The translations under genes and the position numbers were made by a program. The notes beneath the pieces were generated by a model. That model worked only from the letters and a program-made list of their open reading frames with translations. It made no database searches and had not been told where the DNA came from. 32,473 nucleotides of DNA from Candidatus Nomurabacteria bacterium RIFCSPLOWO2_01_FULL_41_12 (GTDB lineage Bacteria; Patescibacteriota; Minisyncoccia; Phycocordibacterales; UBA9973). The stretch is from the NCBI GenBank assembly GCA_001787035.1, contig MFUY01000011.1, positions 1-32,473 of the forward strand, written 5' to 3'. The number at the start of each line of letters is the position of its first letter. Position 1 is the first letter of the stretch. Below are positions 3 through 30,329 of this stretch, piece after piece.

Positions 3-536
3 ACCTTAAGTGAAGATGGCACCAGTACTAACAACTCTTTCTTTGACTCTATCATCTCCATGTTCAAGAATGCTTTTGAGATTGTGTTTGAGAAGGGGCT
101 CCTGAAGGTGGCGAATATTATTACCGAGAAGCTCTCGGCCAGTGTCGGGTCGTTTAAGAAGGTGGAGTTGCAAGATGAAGATACTGGAGATGTCTATTGT
201 GTAAAGATAAAAAGCGGTCAAATATTGAGCACCCAAGGGAATTGCGAGTCTATCCAGGCAGAATCTTCTTCGGAGTCTGCTTCAGAAGAACCTACATCTG
301 AAACTACAACAGAGCCCCAGCCTACGCCAGACTCCTCTGCACAAGGCTCCGAAAGTCCAACGGAGGCTACGGCGGGCGAAGCAGAACCAGAGGTTTTTTC
401 CACGGAAGCTACAGTGGACGAGTCGGCGAGCCAACCAGCCCCCGAACCTGCACCTGAACCGGAACCCGAGCCGGAACCGGAAGTGATTCTGGAACCAGAG
501 CCTGCGCCAGAACCTACGCTAGAGGCAACTCAATAA
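3..536 (+). CDS. 3' part of a hypothetical protein with an acidic Ser/Thr/Glu/Pro low-complexity tail; the 5' end lies outside the window
   Basis: This frame is open from base 3 (TLSEDGTS... precedes the first Met at 60) and stops at TAA 534-536. The tail is GC-richer and ends PAPEPAPEPEPEPEPEVILEPEPAPEP. No catalytic motif was recognised. Confidence 0.5.
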   Translation, partial: TLSEDGTSTNNSFFDSIISMFKNAFEIVFEKGLLKVANIITEKLSASVGSFKKVELQDEDTGDVYCVKIKSGQILSTQGNCESIQAESSSESASEEPTSETTTEPQPTPDSSAQGSESPTEATAGEAEPEVFSTEATVDESASQPAPEPAPEPEPEPEPEVILEPEPAPEPTLEATQ

Positions 537-1359
537 AAAATGTTGAGCCCTTGCCTGCGCCTTCGGATTCTGCGGAGACGCGCCCTTTGTGCGCTTCTAC
601 CACTAACTTTACCGAATAAAGACCGTAACCAGTTGAGTCCACATTAACTTTGACTGATTCTTTGCCCCGCCCGCCTTCGGTAAATAAATTCTTTTTATCC
701 TCATCGGTGATGCCGATGCCAGTATCTTTAATAGAAAGGATAATTTTGTTTTCCCCACCTGCATCAGCTATGCCTGAAGCATTGCGGGCAGGTTTTGCGC
801 GCCTTAGGTCAACAATAATTTTACCCTCCTTTGTATACTTGATTGAGTTTTCAATCAAGTTGCTTACCGCTTCCTTTATCCAGAAGATGTCGCCTAGGAC
901 ATTATAAACACCTTCTTTTAAATTGCCTTCCATTGCCAGATTTTTCTTTTTTACTTCCGCATGTTTCTCTTTTAGAAGATTTTCTACCATATCTCGGAAA
1001 TCAAAAATTTTCATGTCATATTTTACTGTACCTTTTTGTAGGTTCGCGGCATTTAAAACCAAATCAATTGTTTTTATGCCTCCGTCATTTGCTTCGAGCC
1101 CCTCTTCGGCTATTTTTTTCATCTCTTCATTTGTTTCGCCAAAGGTGCCATCCAGCATTCCAGCAAAGATGTATTTTGAATGAGTGAAAGAACCCTTTAC
1201 TTTATGGGTGATAAGATGCATCAGGCTTTCCCTTTGCTTGTTCAAAGCATCGACTTCTTTATACAATCTCGCCAGTTCGAGATTTTGCTTGTACATTGCT
1301 TCCGTGACTTTTTTGTACTCTTCCGGATCAATAGGCTTATTTTCGTCGTTGGTAACCAT
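514..1359 (-). CDS. Soluble histidine kinase core (DHp plus HATPase_c) with no TM or sensor domain
   Basis: 281 aa with a coiled-coil N-terminus and an H-box-like LITHKVKGSFTHS. N box is NLIENSIKYT, G1 is IKDTGIGI, G2 is STGYGLYSVK...GSTFFIELP. It carries the 44-bp shared insert, encoding PARNASGIADAGGE. Confidence 0.8.
   Translation of the reverse strand: MVTNDENKPIDPEEYKKVTEAMYKQNLELARLYKEVDALNKQRESLMHLITHKVKGSFTHSKYIFAGMLDGTFGETNEEMKKIAEEGLEANDGGIKTIDLVLNAANLQKGTVKYDMKIFDFRDMVENLLKEKHAEVKKKNLAMEGNLKEGVYNVLGDIFWIKEAVSNLIENSIKYTKEGKIIVDLRRAKPARNASGIADAGGENKIILSIKDTGIGITDEDKKNLFTEGGRGKESVKVNVDSTGYGLYSVKLVVEAHKGRVSAESEGAGKGSTFFIELPLA
751..794 (-). repeat. 44-bp in-frame coding repeat, copy 1 (in the histidine kinase)
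   Basis: TTCCCCACCTGCATCAGCTATGCCTGAAGCATTGCGGGCAGGTT matches 24208-24251 at 41 of 44 positions. Orientation and reading frame are the same in both genes. Confidence 0.85.
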
Positions 1360-4561: not shown

Positions 4562-6118
4562 ATGTCATTTGCCAAAGTTTATTCAGCACAAGTAAATTTA
4601 TTAAAAGGAGTCATCGTGACTATAGAGGTGGACTTATCCAAGGGGCTACACACTTTTTCCGTCGTGGGTCTGCCGGATAAAGCAGTCGACGAGTCAAAGG
4701 ACAGAGTAAGCGGAGCCATAAAAAATTCTGGTTTCAAATCTCCTAAAGCCAAGAATCAAAAAATAACCGTTTCTCTTTCACCAGCTGACTTGAAAAAAGA
4801 AGGGCCGTTTTTTGATTTAGCTATTGCGATCGCTTATCTTAAGGCTGCCGGCGAAATTAAATTTAATTCAGAGAAAAAGATTTTCTTGGGTGAGCTAGGG
4901 CTCGACGGCACTCTGCGGAGCATCCGGGGAGCATTGCCACTTGCGGAAGAGGCCAAAAGGAGGGGATATCAGGAAATATATCTGCCGAGAGAAAATGCAG
5001 CTGAAGCGGCGCTCGTAGACGGCATAAAAGTTTTTGGAGCTGGCTCTTTAGAAGAAGTCATAGAACATATTGATGCCCCGACCAAAGTCGGGGTCCCGAC
5101 AAAGGTCGGGAAGAAAATTCCAGCTCAGCCGAAGACTAAGATAATTTATAAGAGGGAGATGAAAGGCGGGGACTTTGCCGATATCCGCGGGCAAGAAGGG
5201 GCGAAAAGGGGGCTGGAGATTGCGGCAGCCGGCGGGCACAATATAGCTATGTATGGTCCGCCGGGCACCGGCAAGACGATGCTGGCCCGGGTATTCTCGG
5301 GGCTGTTGCCTGATTTAAGTACTGATGAAGTCTTGGAAATAACAGGCATTCATTCCGTGGCGGGAAATGCGAGAGGCGAGCTGGTTTGCTTTCCTCCATT
5401 CCGCTCCCCGCACCATACCTCGTCTTATGTCTCTATTGTCGGTGGGGGAACATATCCCAAGCCGGGAGAAGTGACGCTCGCACATAGGGGAGTTTTATTT
5501 CTGGATGAATTTCCGGAATTTGAAAAGAGAGTGATAGAGTCTTTGCGCCAGCCACTTGAAGATAACATTGTTTCAATTTCTCGCGCCAAAGGCTCGGCGA
5601 TTTTCCCGTCTAACTTTATTTTAGTGGCGGCGATGAATCCTTGTCCTTGTGGGAATGCCGGAAGTAAACAGAAGCAATGTATCTGCAAACCCTCCGACTT
5701 GGACAGATATAAAAGAAAATTATCCGGGCCGATAATAGACAGGATTGATTTATGGCTTTCTGTCGGCAATGTAGATTATAAAAAGTTGGGAGGAGAGGGG
5801 ACGGGAGAGAGGAGTGAGAAGATAAAAGCGCGAGTAATAACAGCGCGGGAAATTCAGAAAAATAGATTTCAAAAATTAGGCCGAGATATAAGTACCAATA
5901 GCGAAATGAATGTAAAAGATTTGTCCAATATGGTAAAACTTACAAAAGAAGTCAGGGATTTGCTGGATGATAGTGCTGAACGCCTGGGTCTCTCTGCCCG
6001 CGCCTATCACCGGGTGATTAAAATCGCCCGCACCATCGCCGACTTGGAAAATTCTCCCGATGTAGGGGCGAATCATATATTAGAAGCTATTCAATATCGT
6101 CCGAAGGTTAATACGTAA
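4562..6118 (+). CDS. comM: ComM/YifB Mg-chelatase-like AAA+ ATPase
   Basis: 518 aa. Walker A is GPPGTGKT, Walker B is VLFLDEFPEF, and NPCPCGN is present. An N-terminal Lon/ChlI-like domain and a C-terminal LSARAYHRVIKIARTIADL are present. Confidence 0.85.
   Translation: MSFAKVYSAQVNLLKGVIVTIEVDLSKGLHTFSVVGLPDKAVDESKDRVSGAIKNSGFKSPKAKNQKITVSLSPADLKKEGPFFDLAIAIAYLKAAGEIKFNSEKKIFLGELGLDGTLRSIRGALPLAEEAKRRGYQEIYLPRENAAEAALVDGIKVFGAGSLEEVIEHIDAPTKVGVPTKVGKKIPAQPKTKIIYKREMKGGDFADIRGQEGAKRGLEIAAAGGHNIAMYGPPGTGKTMLARVFSGLLPDLSTDEVLEITGIHSVAGNARGELVCFPPFRSPHHTSSYVSIVGGGTYPKPGEVTLAHRGVLFLDEFPEFEKRVIESLRQPLEDNIVSISRAKGSAIFPSNFILVAAMNPCPCGNAGSKQKQCICKPSDLDRYKRKLSGPIIDRIDLWLSVGNVDYKKLGGEGTGERSEKIKARVITAREIQKNRFQKLGRDISTNSEMNVKDLSNMVKLTKEVRDLLDDSAERLGLSARAYHRVIKIARTIADLENSPDVGANHILEAIQYRPKVNT
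5076..5113 (+). repeat. In-frame 18-bp tandem duplication; each unit forms a GC hairpin
   Basis: Units CCGACCAAAGTCGGGGTC and CCGACAAAGGTCGGGAAG encode PTKVGV and PTKVGK. The hairpins are CCCCGAC-CAAA-GTCGGGG and CCCGAC-AAAG-GTCGGG. Confidence 0.8.
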
Positions 6119-9203: not shown

Positions 9204-9213
9204 TTATAATTAG

Positions 9214-9327
9214 AAAAATCGTCGTAATAACTTTTCGCGGGGTTTTGAGCGCGACGGCGCGAGAACTTCAGGATTTTTTAAGCTTCAAAAAATTCGTACC
9301 GAAGAAAAGTTTATTACGACAATTTTT
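9214..9327 (+). repeat. Nested palindromic intergenic element, copy A (62-nt core at 9239-9300)
   Basis: The core is GGGGTTTTGAGCGCGACGGCGCGAGAACTTCAGGATTTTTTAAGCTTCAAAAAATTCGTACC. Copy-specific arms are 9214-9236 and 9304-9327, with one bulge and one mismatch. Confidence 0.85.
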
Positions 9328-12729: not shown

Positions 12730-12736
12730 AAATTAA

Positions 12737-12849
12737 AAAAATAATAAATATAAATTTTTTTAGGTACGGATTTTTTGAAGCTTAAAAAATCCTGAAGTTT
12801 TCACGCCGTCGCGTTCAAAACCCCTAAAAAACTTATATTTATTATTTTT
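12737..12849 (-). repeat. Nested palindromic intergenic element, copy C (inverted)
   Basis: The core at 12763-12824 matches the reverse complement of copy D at 58 of 62 positions. The A/T-only arms are 12737-12762 and 12825-12849. Confidence 0.85.
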
Positions 12850-12850
12850 C

Positions 12851-23295: not shown

Positions 23296-24510
23296 TTACT
23301 CTTCTTTTTTTTCAATCACTTCTTCAGTTTCCGTAGAGACCACTTCTTTGCCGTCGCCCTTGATGTCTATCCTCCACCCAGTCAGCTTGGCCGCTAGGCG
23401 CACGTTTTGTCCACCCTTGCCGATAGCCAGCGATAATTGATCATTGGCTACTTCTACCGTGGCTTTGTGGTCCTTTTCATCCACTTCAATTGCAACGACT
23501 TTTGCCGGAGAAATGGCATTGGCAACAAAGATTTTCGGATCCGAAGACCAGGGAATAATATCGATTTTCTCGCCACCTAGCTCTCCGGTCACGGTGTTTA
23601 CCCGCGTGCCTTTCTGCCCGACGCATGAGCCGACTGGGTCTATGTGCTCGTCGTTTGAAAATACCGCTATCTTGGAACGGGCGCCGGCTTCCCGGGCTAC
23701 AGATTTTATCTCAACGATTCCATTTTGAATTTCCGGCGCTTCCACAGCAAAAAGCTTTTCTATGAATTTCGGATGCGTGCGGGAAAGGCGTAAATTAATG
23801 CCCCTTGGCGTGTCTTCCACGGAATAGAGATATGCTCGCACGCGAGCCCCTCTCTGGAAAGATTCCCCGGGAATTTGCTCTTCGGCGGACAGGATGCCTG
23901 TGGCGCGATTGAAATCAACATAGACATTTCCTCTTTCAACTTTCTGCACTATTCCCCCGATGATTTCTCCTTCTTTTGTCCCATATTCATCAATGATAGA
24001 CGTGCGTTCAGCCTCGCGGATTTTCTGTATTATGACCTGCTTGGCGGTCTGGGCGGCGATGCGTCCGTAATCTTCTTTTGCCTCTAATGGGAAAATAACT
24101 TCATCATTTAATTCCACCCCTTTTTTTATTTTCTTTGCATCTTCCAGCATCAGGTGATGTTCCGGATTGAAGTGCACTCGTTCGTCTTCTATATCTTTTA
24201 CAGAATATTCCCCGCCTGCATCAGCTATGCCGAAAGCATTGCGGGCAGGTTGCTCATTTTCCTTACCTTTATTTTTATCCCCATCTAAGATTGCGATAGT
24301 TTCATCAACCACGATTTTTACTTGGAAAAATTCCGTTTTGCCGGTCTCCAGGTCGAATTTAGCCCGGATAATTTGCCCTTTTTTGCCGTAATCCTTTTTA
24401 TAAGCGGCCGCCATTGCTTGCTCTATAGCGTCTAATATTTTTTCTTTTGGAATTTTCCTTTCTTCTTCGAGCTGTTCCAGGGCTGACTTGAACGTCTTTA
24501 GGTCTAACAT
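23296..24510 (-). CDS. nusA: Transcription termination/antitermination factor NusA
   Basis: NTD, an S1-like GGIVQKVERGNVYVDF, and KH motifs VGQKGTRV and AIGKGGQNVRLA. It carries the 44-bp shared insert, encoding PARNAFGIADAGGE. Confidence 0.9.
   Translation of the reverse strand: MLDLKTFKSALEQLEEERKIPKEKILDAIEQAMAAAYKKDYGKKGQIIRAKFDLETGKTEFFQVKIVVDETIAILDGDKNKGKENEQPARNAFGIADAGGEYSVKDIEDERVHFNPEHHLMLEDAKKIKKGVELNDEVIFPLEAKEDYGRIAAQTAKQVIIQKIREAERTSIIDEYGTKEGEIIGGIVQKVERGNVYVDFNRATGILSAEEQIPGESFQRGARVRAYLYSVEDTPRGINLRLSRTHPKFIEKLFAVEAPEIQNGIVEIKSVAREAGARSKIAVFSNDEHIDPVGSCVGQKGTRVNTVTGELGGEKIDIIPWSSDPKIFVANAISPAKVVAIEVDEKDHKATVEVANDQLSLAIGKGGQNVRLAAKLTGWRIDIKGDGKEVVSTETEEVIEKKEE
24208..24251 (-). 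repeat. 44-bp in-frame coding repeat, copy 2 (in nusA)
   Basis: TTCCCCGCCTGCATCAGCTATGCCGAAAGCATTGCGGGCAGGTT matches 751-794 at 41 of 44 positions. Confidence 0.85.
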
Positions 24511-28343: not shown

Positions 28344-28459
28344 AAAATTCTTGAAACATAATTTTTCGCAGGGTTTTGAGCGCGACGGCGCGAGAACTTC
28401 AGGATTTTTTAAGCTTCAAAAAATCCGTACCAAAGAGAAATTGATGTTTTTAGAATTTT
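28344..28459 (+). repeat. Nested palindromic intergenic element, copy D
   Basis: The core at 28370-28431 matches copy A at 60 of 62 positions. Copy-specific imperfect arms are 28344-28367 and 28435-28459. It lies between convergent genes. Confidence 0.85.
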
Positions 28460-29114: not shown

Positions 29115-30329
29115 ATGGGTCGCTACAGCTGGCTTTTCGTCGTCGTGCTGGCGACCGTGTTGGTCGCCGCTTGCAGTGAGCCTTACAAGCCCACTGCGCC
29201 GTCGTCGCCCTCTTCGTCTCTCACGTCAGGCGTTTGGTTTGCGCCTGGTACGTCGGAAATGGCGTCGGTGCACGATGTGGAACCGGAACCGGCACCCTTG
29301 CCGACCCCGGAACCGGAACCGGCACCCTTGCCGGCACCGGAGCCGACCGTCGTGCATCCTGGCACCGTCACGGACGTCGCTGGCAAGCCCATCGGGGGTG
29401 TCAAGGTGATGTTCCTTGACGGACTCAACGTTGGCAAGTTCACGTTTACGAATGCCGACGGTGACTATGTTGGCGCGTATGCGTTTACCGATGCGTTGGT
29501 CGGAAACGCGAACCTATCAGCCACGAAGGTTGGGTACGCAGAGCAGATCCTTGGCATCTACGTTGACGGCATCAACACGCTTGATTTCGTGCTGAGCGCT
29601 ATGTCGACACAGTCCCCGAGGGCTGTGGACGACAACTACACCGTCCAGCTCGGCACGGTTCTGAATGTTCCGGCCCCTGGAGTCCTGGCGAACGACTCTA
29701 TTCCGGCGGGAATGACGGTTACGGCATCATTCCCGCCACCGAGGCCACCAGGGACCTTGACCAACACTGGGGGTGGGGGGTTTACGTATAACCCCATCGT
29801 TGACCCTCAGAACCCGCCTGTCGTGCGGTTTCAATACCTGATCCAAACAGCGGCTGGAGCAATCAATGGAGCAACCGTGACGGTTAACTTCGTTGTTGAT
29901 CCTACAAAGCCAACCATCAGCATCAGGGAGGTGCTGCCGGCGAGCCCTGCGGGGCCGCTGCCACGTGGGAACTTGAGCACGGTTCGAGTTCTTCTGCATT
30001 TCGAGCAAAACAACTGGGCCGGGACGGACAGGATGACCGCTTGGCTCTGCGGGGCTGATGATCGTCCGAGTATGATCATCCGGACCAGTTGTCAGGCGAA
30101 CAGCGTGAGCAGGCAGTCGCCGGACTTGTACCTCAACCCCACGCTGGGGCTCCGGGGCCCGTCTGACTGCGGAATCGTCAAGGTCACGCGGCTCGTGGCG
30201 TTCCTCACGCCGACGAACGAGACGCCACATGTGCCCTCGCCTACGGATCCTTACAAGTCTGAGGTGGGGATCACTATGTGGGCTCGCGCTGAGCGAGCCG
30301 TCGACTGGACCTATCAGCCGTGCAATTAG
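29115..30329 (+). CDS. High-GC lipoprotein with PEPEPAPLP repeats, a CarboxypepD_reg-like segment and an adhesin-type Ig/cadherin-like motif
   Basis: Lipobox LVAAC. GTVTDVAGKPIGGVKVMF...NADGDY and VDDNYTVQLGTVLNVPAPGVLANDS are present. Third codon positions are GC-rich, unlike every neighbouring gene. Confidence 0.75.
   Translation: MGRYSWLFVVVLATVLVAACSEPYKPTAPSSPSSSLTSGVWFAPGTSEMASVHDVEPEPAPLPTPEPEPAPLPAPEPTVVHPGTVTDVAGKPIGGVKVMFLDGLNVGKFTFTNADGDYVGAYAFTDALVGNANLSATKVGYAEQILGIYVDGINTLDFVLSAMSTQSPRAVDDNYTVQLGTVLNVPAPGVLANDSIPAGMTVTASFPPPRPPGTLTNTGGGGFTYNPIVDPQNPPVVRFQYLIQTAAGAINGATVTVNFVVDPTKPTISIREVLPASPAGPLPRGNLSTVRVLLHFEQNNWAGTDRMTAWLCGADDRPSMIIRTSCQANSVSRQSPDLYLNPTLGLRGPSDCGIVKVTRLVAFLTPTNETPHVPSPTDPYKSEVGITMWARAERAVDWTYQPCN
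29280..29339 (+). repeat. 30-bp tandem duplication inside the high-GC gene
   Basis: GAACCGGAACCGGCACCCTTGCCGACCCCG and GAACCGGAACCGGCACCCTTGCCGGCACCG match at 28 of 30 positions. They encode EPEPAPLPTP and EPEPAPLPAP. Confidence 0.85.

Follow-up and report, generated by a model that had tools for sequence, protein, structure and literature searches.

A 39-nucleotide hairpin inserted in frame into unrelated genes of Patescibacteria, probably a mobile element of the REP/RPE kind

Palindromic repeats lying inside genes are already known. The short intragenic REPs, which include RPE-4 and RPE-6 of Rickettsia, are GTAG- or CGTC-tagged hairpin repeats of 20–40 bp that occur as dimers, clusters and arrays; some units lie wholly within known genes, to which they add a short peptide argued to sit in flexible loops, and RAYT tyrosine transposases have been proposed to mobilise REPs (Di Nocera et al. 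2013, PMC3733652). The Rickettsia elements of the RPE-1 type are palindromic selfish DNA of approximately 100–150 bp, found in frame in unrelated housekeeping genes (Ogata et al. 2000, via PMC10969869); RPEs occupy a reduced host genome and are predicted to be translated and to lie on protein surfaces (PMC10969869).

We analysed a stretch of 32,473 nucleotides from Candidatus Nomurabacteria bacterium RIFCSPLOWO2_01_FULL_41_12 (contig MFUY01000011.1), hereafter the window, in which an initial annotation made from the letters alone had pointed out a 44-bp segment shared by two unrelated genes. Indeed, positions 751–794 and 24208–24251 are identical at 41 of 44 positions, and a pattern covering both copies, with two matches in the window, had none in 100 dinucleotide-preserving shuffles. 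Comparison with the other copies described below shows that the actual repeat unit is shorter than annotated, namely 39 nt; the identical bases outside it (AA before, GAA after) belong to the host sequence and fit a weak target preference. The two copies and their host genes are:

754–792, minus strand: repeat copy 1, 39-nt hairpin element inside the histidine kinase gene
24211–24249, minus strand: repeat copy 2, 39-nt hairpin element inside nusA, in the NusA N-terminal domain
514–1359, minus strand: host gene 1, short histidine kinase of 281 aa with DHp and HATPase_c domains
23296–24510, minus strand: host gene 2, nusA, 404 aa, with Pfam NusA_N, S1 and KH_5

The unit, CCTGCCCGCAATGCTTNNGGCATAGCTGATGCAGGCGGG, encodes the peptide PARNAxGIADAGG. 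Its two copies match at 36 of 39 positions, the differences (C/T, A/C and T/C) falling at loop positions; copy 1 is subfamily V1 with one change, C36>T, that retains a G.U pair, and copy 2 is the loop variant TTTCGG. As had been annotated, both copies have the same orientation (minus strand, within long ORFs) and share one reading frame, in which the 44-nt segments encode PARNASGIADAGGE in the kinase and PARNAFGIADAGGE in NusA; the 39-nt units translate as PARNASGIADAGG and PARNAFGIADAGG, respectively, each followed by E. Direct reading likewise bears out that this is the single stop-free sense frame, the two unused ones being interrupted by TAG and TGA. The kinase is supported by Pfam HATPase_c (E = 2e-20), by PDB matches to HK853-type kinases and by homologues of equally short length; for NusA, 7999 homologues were found. 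The insert-bearing kinase is encoded on 11 contigs and the insert-bearing NusA on 13, coming from several independent assemblies, which rules out an assembly artefact, one of the refuting conditions of the initial annotation.

The element is inserted as a discrete unit: its ends are sharp and no target-site duplication accompanies it. Among 120 NusA homologues, one that is 91% identical to the window's protein lacks exactly these 13 residues, and comparison with the DNA encoding it (protein P0004, locus L122) gave an exact 39-nt presence/absence: the sequence is ...GAC CGA|GAG TAT... in the empty allele and ...GAG CAA[39 nt]GAA TAT... in the filled one, with no duplication. Approximately 75 kinase homologues have a turn of 2–4 residues where the window's kinase has 13 residues, and the insert is unique to the latter. 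The peptide is not an ancestral feature of these positions. Alignment to HK853 structures places the kinase insert between the N box (NLIENSIKYT) and the G1 box (DTGIGI), in a beta-hairpin turn, and not in the ATP lid as first proposed. The NusA insert does lie in the N-terminal region, within a lineage-specific variable stretch of approximately 40 residues of the N-terminal domain that has no counterpart in solved NusA structures. An AlphaFold2 model of NusA was of too low quality for use (mean pLDDT 42.6), its alignment of 46 sequences, all more than 82% identical, being shallow. Judging from the open frame, each in-frame copy would be translated and add 13 residues in a variable loop; given the beta-turn and the variable loop in which the two window copies lie, the insert would be tolerated on the protein surface.

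Direct repeats at 93 junction pairs were no commoner than in shuffled pairings, and flanking inverted repeats are absent from the element junctions. A MITE derived from a DDE transposon, to be recognised by terminal inverted repeats and a target-site duplication, was rejected on this lack of junction repeats and on the empty nusA site free of duplication. The only flank preference is a weak one: position −1 tends to be A, +1 to be G and +2 to be A, in approximately 60% of cases for each.

Two scans revealed how far the element is dispersed. The first, covering one genome per species (185,579 species genomes) with a 35-nt core in which two loop bases were free, returned 28 loci, all in Patescibacteria metagenome-assembled genomes (MAGs) and with unrelated flanks; the second, on metagenome contigs, used a pattern fixing only the first two bases of each codon, third positions being free, and returned 93 further loci. 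Altogether, approximately 150 copies were found at approximately 70 distinct sites in Patescibacteria assemblies, sites being counted after orthologous and identical flanks had been merged. The expectation of further copies in unrelated host genes was thereby borne out. Coding sequence holds 61 of the 70 sites (approx. 87%), 55 in sense and 6 in antisense orientation, and 9 sites are non-coding. The picture of an in-frame intragenic element, drawn from the two window copies, thus stands for the 55 sense sites and was incomplete, as antisense, non-coding and tandem-array copies exist too.

Among the copies from the species scan and the window, 29 of 30 begin at a codon boundary of a long ORF and have its orientation; phase 0, the sole stop-free sense frame, is the one used by all sense coding copies, and the length is a multiple of three. 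Sense hosts include SecA, enolase, FtsK, a TraG-like protein, SNase, a methyltransferase, PilM, Trp/TyrRS, trigger factor, MreC, PurE, ribosomal protein S1, PNPase, IleRS, Dus, RpoA, topoisomerase I (TopA) and a Mur ligase. Antisense coding copies, hosted by GluRS, RecG, a NifS/IscS-like gene and one other, nearly all read PPASAMP(K/E)ALRAG with the frame open. The host genomes are those of AT-rich Patescibacteria, and the repeat itself is GC-rich. Carriers are labelled in the records as Nomurabacteria/Paceibacterota, plus Saccharibacteria and Collierbacteria. MAGs labelled Saccharibacteria and Nomurabacteria have orthologous insertions in common, with approximately 70% flank identity (L008 versus L026; L012 versus L037/L112); some of these labels are therefore probably unreliable, and we make no claim of spread across phyla.

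The degenerate codon pattern had no match in viral contigs, and BLAST against phage and plasmid collections gave no real match, so that a phage or plasmid origin is unsupported and was set aside. With Rfam 15, no family reached the gathering threshold in the window, and only chance-level snoRNA matches (E > 1) were obtained around the element. Searching a set of 5.8 billion proteins with a concatenated peptide yielded 942 word-sharing candidates, 2 of them above threshold, which says little more than that the peptide is rare. No description of the 39-nt element was found in the literature searched, of which coverage was partial.

Two further arrangements of the element were observed. In the NifS/IscS-like aminotransferase gene, it forms perfect tandem arrays of 1 to 6 copies depending on the sample, that is, an in-frame copy-number polymorphism. 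The few non-coding copies lie downstream of genes, along the direction of transcription, and some are embedded in a larger conserved repeat whose flanks (GGTTGTTC-TA ... GAACAACC) lengthen the hairpin by extra complementarity:

L090 3442–3676 (also L056, L041, L031, L035, L059 and L091), antisense: tandem array, read (PPASAMPKALRAG)n
L051 679–716, 7177–7214 and 7825–7862 (also L029, L043 and L114): non-coding copies in the larger conserved repeat

As a separate observation, one copy (L109 416–454) directly adjoins a tRNA-Pro gene of the other strand, at the 3' end of that gene.

The window also holds repeats of other kinds. At 5076–5111 on the plus strand, the ORF 4562–6118, a ComM/Mg-chelatase-like gene, contains another in-frame element, GC-rich but unrelated to the first: a double hairpin of 36 nt (CCCCGACCAAAGTCGGGG + TCCCGACAAAGGTCGGGA), translated as APTKVGVPTKVG, with a relative at L048 490–525. 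An intergenic repeat of approximately 100 nt is present in three copies (9213–9314; 12735–12850, inverted; 28354–28459) that are 80–92% identical and have internal inverted repeats, without Rfam match. Low-complexity GC-rich repeats of the GGAACCGGAACC type occur in two ORFs (442–520 and 29266–29350), and the GC content of the region at approximately 28–30.4 kb (49%) is above that of the rest of the window.

The conservation of the 39-nt element lies at the level of nucleotides. In 147 of 147 matches, positions 3, 12, 24, 30 and 33 are invariant, despite the free third positions of the pattern, and positions 6, 9, 21 and 36 are conserved in at least 142; real variation is limited to positions 15, 17, 18, 27 and 39. 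The proposed fold has 14 predicted pairs: a basal stem 1–6/34–39 (CCUGCC/GGCGGG, with a U.G pair), a C-A mismatch and three more pairs, then an apical stem 11–15/19–23, its loop being of 3 nt and its bulge of 6 nt. When 33 distinct variants are placed on this fold, 98% of cells are paired; pair 15-19 is UG, CG or UA with no mismatch, pair 13-21 is GC, GU or AU, and U3.G37 is present in 33 of 33, G.U pairs existing on the sense strand only. The thermodynamic minimum is an alternative register that fits the variants less well (92%), and the folding energy is modestly better than that of dinucleotide shuffles (z = −1.6 to −1.9). Covariation statistics are weak because so little varies (few changes, with the same count of double changes in 114 of 500 shuffles). 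Thus, the structural evidence is comparative. In three slightly decayed NusA copies, changes affect the loop, the bulge or isolated positions of the stem; these alter amino acids, and the synonymous positions are fixed, the reverse of what selection on the protein would produce. The invariance of synonymous positions, together with variation that falls in predicted loops or keeps pairs, points to a constraint on the nucleotide hairpin rather than on the peptide: on the evidence of the aligned copies, the conserved entity is the nucleotide sequence and its predicted hairpin. Relatives of 27, 32, 36 and 37 nt have the same stem base and different self-complementary tips, and the element belongs to a superfamily of 27–39 nt in which a fixed basal stem (CCUGCC/GGCGGG, C-A mismatch, GC/GC) carries interchangeable apical hairpins. 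Such a common base with different tips suggests that recognition takes place at the base of the stem.

We consider it probable that the two segments of the window are copies of a REP/RPE-like mobile hairpin element, translated through in frame. The element would be, now or until recently, a non-autonomous mobile element of this kind, spreading as a strand-specific single-stranded hairpin that a trans-acting enzyme recognises at its conserved base; survival would be limited to copies lodged in tolerant loops without interrupting the host frame, and these would be transcribed and translated as part of the host protein. The most speculative step is the nature of the enzyme, which may be a RAYT-type Y1/HUH transposase. 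In the REP/RAYT and IS200/IS605 style of transposition, cutting and joining are single-stranded and guided by a hairpin, and no duplication is left. The absence of duplication, the strand-specific imperfect hairpin, the conserved stem base, the small size and the tandem or clustered copies all fit this style.

The initial annotation was correct in essence, and the checks that it had suggested all turned out in its favour. The RPE-like behaviour first attributed to the segment holds as a description, and the closest counterparts are the short intragenic REPs, including RPE-4 and RPE-6 (PMC3733652). As with REPs, we are dealing with an imperfect palindrome of the 20–40 bp class with a predicted stem-loop, and its few non-coding copies lie downstream of genes. 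Unlike REPs, it ends in CCTGCC... and ...GGCGGG, and neither end carries a GTAG or CGTC tag, whichever strand is read; REPs are mostly extragenic, downstream of genes, whereas 61 of the 70 sites found here are coding, and the element further departs from REPs by its near identity across many species-level genomes and by its strong sense bias. With RPEs it shares the in-frame insertion of a palindromic repeat in unrelated ORFs, but it is set apart by size (39 nt versus approximately 100–150 bp), by its Patescibacteria host and by a far more uniform nucleotide sequence; by analogy, it may be regarded as an unusually small and sharply conserved relative of the Rickettsia ‘selfish DNA inside genes’.

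Other systems are more distant. The small dispersed repeats of cyanobacteria, reportedly of 21–27 nt, are said by Elhai et al. in 2008 to look mobile while being far below MITE size and having no transposase of their own, and to occur in coding and non-coding DNA, nested in other hairpins; their sequence, size and host are different. With the palindromes derived from IS200/IS605 (‘peel and paste’, Y1/HUH), the element has in common a strand-specific imperfect hairpin, no duplication, a seamless presence/absence and the occurrence of Y1_Tnp genes in the genomes carrying it. It differs from them in having no conserved tetranucleotide target at one end, only A|GA at approximately 60%, and in consisting of one hairpin instead of having separate left and right ends, with no linked transposase copy found. 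The template and variable repeats of a DGR, a pair expected to differ mainly at adenines of the template and to have a reverse transcriptase nearby, were discarded, as the copies differ by C/T, A/C and T/C in loops and approximately 150 near-identical ones occupy unrelated genes.

As to the mobilising enzyme, a RAYT-type Y1/HUH protein is a candidate only. At three independent loci (L109, L027 and L015), a Y1_Tnp gene is close to the element or a relative, the distances being 88 nt, 0.56 kb and 1.2 kb, and genome JACPLQ01 contains a Y1_Tnp gene as well as an element. Patescibacteria commonly have RAYT-like genes (5491 matches), and one is syntenic in several of them, between the transketolase and ribulose-phosphate epimerase (Rpe) genes. 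However, unlike REPs and the cognate RAYT that they flank, the element does not flank these genes, its distance in the three loci being 0.1–1.2 kb. No copy was found in 52 kb around three RAYT-like homologues, which makes the RAYT link a lead only, and no transposition event was seen among the analysed loci. The RAYT-like Y1_Tnp genes are located at:

L027 2193–2873: RAYT-like Y1_Tnp gene
L128 10001–10663: RAYT-like Y1_Tnp gene
L131 2262–2921: RAYT-like Y1_Tnp gene
L109 approximately 542–1249: RAYT-like Y1_Tnp gene

The last of these sits between two tRNA genes, and its locus has two copies of a different small palindrome, CAAGGCCSGGCCTTG, one immediately upstream of the gene and one within its 3' part.

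In the loci analysed, 137 copies have no mismatch, 20 have one, 4 have two and 1 has three, none having 4–6. Sites common to diverged genomes (flank identity 59–82%) were found in PNPase (five lineages), in an unnamed gene (four) and in the methyltransferase, Mur ligase, transketolase and TrpRS genes (two each). For PNPase and these five genes, flanking codons for the same amino acid are identical in 354 of 782 cases (45%), compared with 12–13 of 13 in the element, and synonymous differences start at the codon directly next to it. In PNPase, identical elements stand at one codon in five lineages with flanks approximately 25% different. This pattern is difficult to reconcile with selfish DNA that is simply passed on vertically, and calls for repeated insertion at a single spot, transfer of alleles, gene conversion or selection in situ. 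Two readings remain for the shared sites: the element is either maintained in place or repeatedly arriving at the same spots.

At NusA, recurrence is favoured. On a tree of 120 NusA proteins, carriers are polyphyletic, scattered among empty alleles and alleles with other inserts, a distribution that would favour recurrent gain or loss at this site. The NusA loop (residues approx. 72–104, window approx. 24200–24300) is an insertion hot spot, the insert always ending just before ‘EYS’; in close relatives (P0001–P0120) it contains at least five other inserted peptide families, for example PPHPSPKEREEFKSPPSGEVGGG, SPERRGSSFPFQGKAGDEV, EAKSGKAGSPDASAEAFR, PLPNLPLNKGEEKGGG and a 36-nt relative of the element, PARPHDSSGASG. 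Some of these inserts look like one DNA read in different frames.

Alternatively, the hairpin could be kept letter-perfect in essential genes by an active process, either repeated recognition by a Y1/RAYT-like enzyme or selection on the sense-strand RNA, although we regard this as unlikely. The enzyme would then be a conserved, syntenic, single-copy Y1/RAYT-like protein, that is, a domesticated ‘intragenic REP’ system. If true, the element would be a lineage-wide nucleic-acid signal embedded in coding sequence, and the same-codon copies of PNPase in five lineages, at saturated synonymous divergence, would be its signature.

The orientation of the copies bears on several of these readings. Coding sites are 55 in sense for 6 in antisense, approximately 9:1, even though the element has one stop-free phase out of three in sense and two in antisense. 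In the window genes, A|GA sites number 336 in sense phase 0 versus 128–145 in each viable antisense phase, and the A|GA preference thus predicts a sense:antisense ratio of approximately 1.2–2.5:1. Given this enrichment, a purine-strand target preference explains part of the bias, and was rejected as its full cause, 2.5:1 at most being predicted against the 9:1 observed. A strand-specific process tied to transcription, or selection on RNA, is a possible origin of the sense bias.

The latter possibility joins a broader explanation, in which the hairpin is a nucleic-acid signal beneficial to the host and kept in place by selection on RNA or DNA, for example as an mRNA site for a nuclease or binding protein or as a DNA site for a conserved protein, the in-frame state being only the price of sitting in a gene. 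Invariant synonymous sites and sharp conservation edges at shared sites are what such a signal would produce, as are G.U pairs restricted to the sense strand (U3.G37 in 33 of 33 variants), the strong sense bias and non-coding copies placed downstream of genes, along transcription, and lengthened by flanking complementarity. However, the distribution is sporadic, with polyphyletic carriers and a 91%-identical NusA devoid of the element; the hosts are unrelated and belong to no common pathway, and the element is rare, with 28 exact cores among 185,579 species genomes. The existence of antisense copies and of tandem arrays, and the lack of any Rfam match, also speak against it, and we judge a host signal to be distinctly improbable.

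Much less probable still is a drive distinct from transposition, whereby DNA uptake or biased gene conversion would favour perfect-copy alleles through transformation between related cells. Patescibacteria depend on DNA uptake, copies occur in core genes, and perfect copies stand at the same site in diverged lineages without a co-converted flank, all of which such a drive would accommodate. Yet the density of the element, at best approximately one per 5–16 kb in the loci seen, is far below that of known uptake sequences. Indeed, DNA uptake signal sequences occur at approximately one per kb, in both orientations, and originate by point mutation; here, there are two copies in a 32-kb window, and the element is strongly biased in orientation and inserted, not built by point mutation. 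A superfamily with variable interiors also argues against one fixed receptor motif.

Removal at the RNA level, by a mini-intron or a translational bypass whose structure is kept so that the host protein is made without the insert, is a very remote prospect. A constraint on nucleotides and not on the peptide would be expected of such an insert, and the sense bias agrees with it, but the sense coding copies are all in phase 0, the sole stop-free frame, with a length multiple of three, which removal would make unnecessary, and the antisense coding copies also keep their frame open. One copy (L053 1445–1483) interrupts a tRNA-like fragment, which would be in favour of such removal; ARAGORN called no tRNA there, and this fragment, not being recognised as a tRNA, was rejected as evidence. 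Read from the sequence, the sites have neither the take-off and landing codon pairs nor the stop codon of known bypass sites.

Lastly, a functional 13-residue peptide module under protein-level selection, to which the same peptide in many proteins, always in loops, might point, is barely conceivable and effectively refuted, as selection on a protein could not produce the invariance seen at third codon positions, as antisense hosts read the same DNA as PPASAMPxALRAG, as copies occur in non-coding DNA and as substitutions in unpaired parts change amino acids.

Under the preferred reading, that of a REP/RPE-like mobile hairpin, Patescibacteria, whose genomes are reduced and AT-rich, would harbour hairpin elements of very small size that insert their own sequence into essential proteins, and one loop of NusA would have been hit repeatedly, by the 39-nt family and by several others. 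Hairpin elements may accordingly be a source of protein loop variation in these bacteria. They also represent a hazard for annotation and phylogeny, since identical 13-residue stretches in unrelated proteins are not homology. In addition, the element could offer a clean natural system for how DNA of less than 40 nt moves without target duplication, with two testable puzzles, its letter-perfect conservation at shared sites and its 9:1 bias towards the sense strand.
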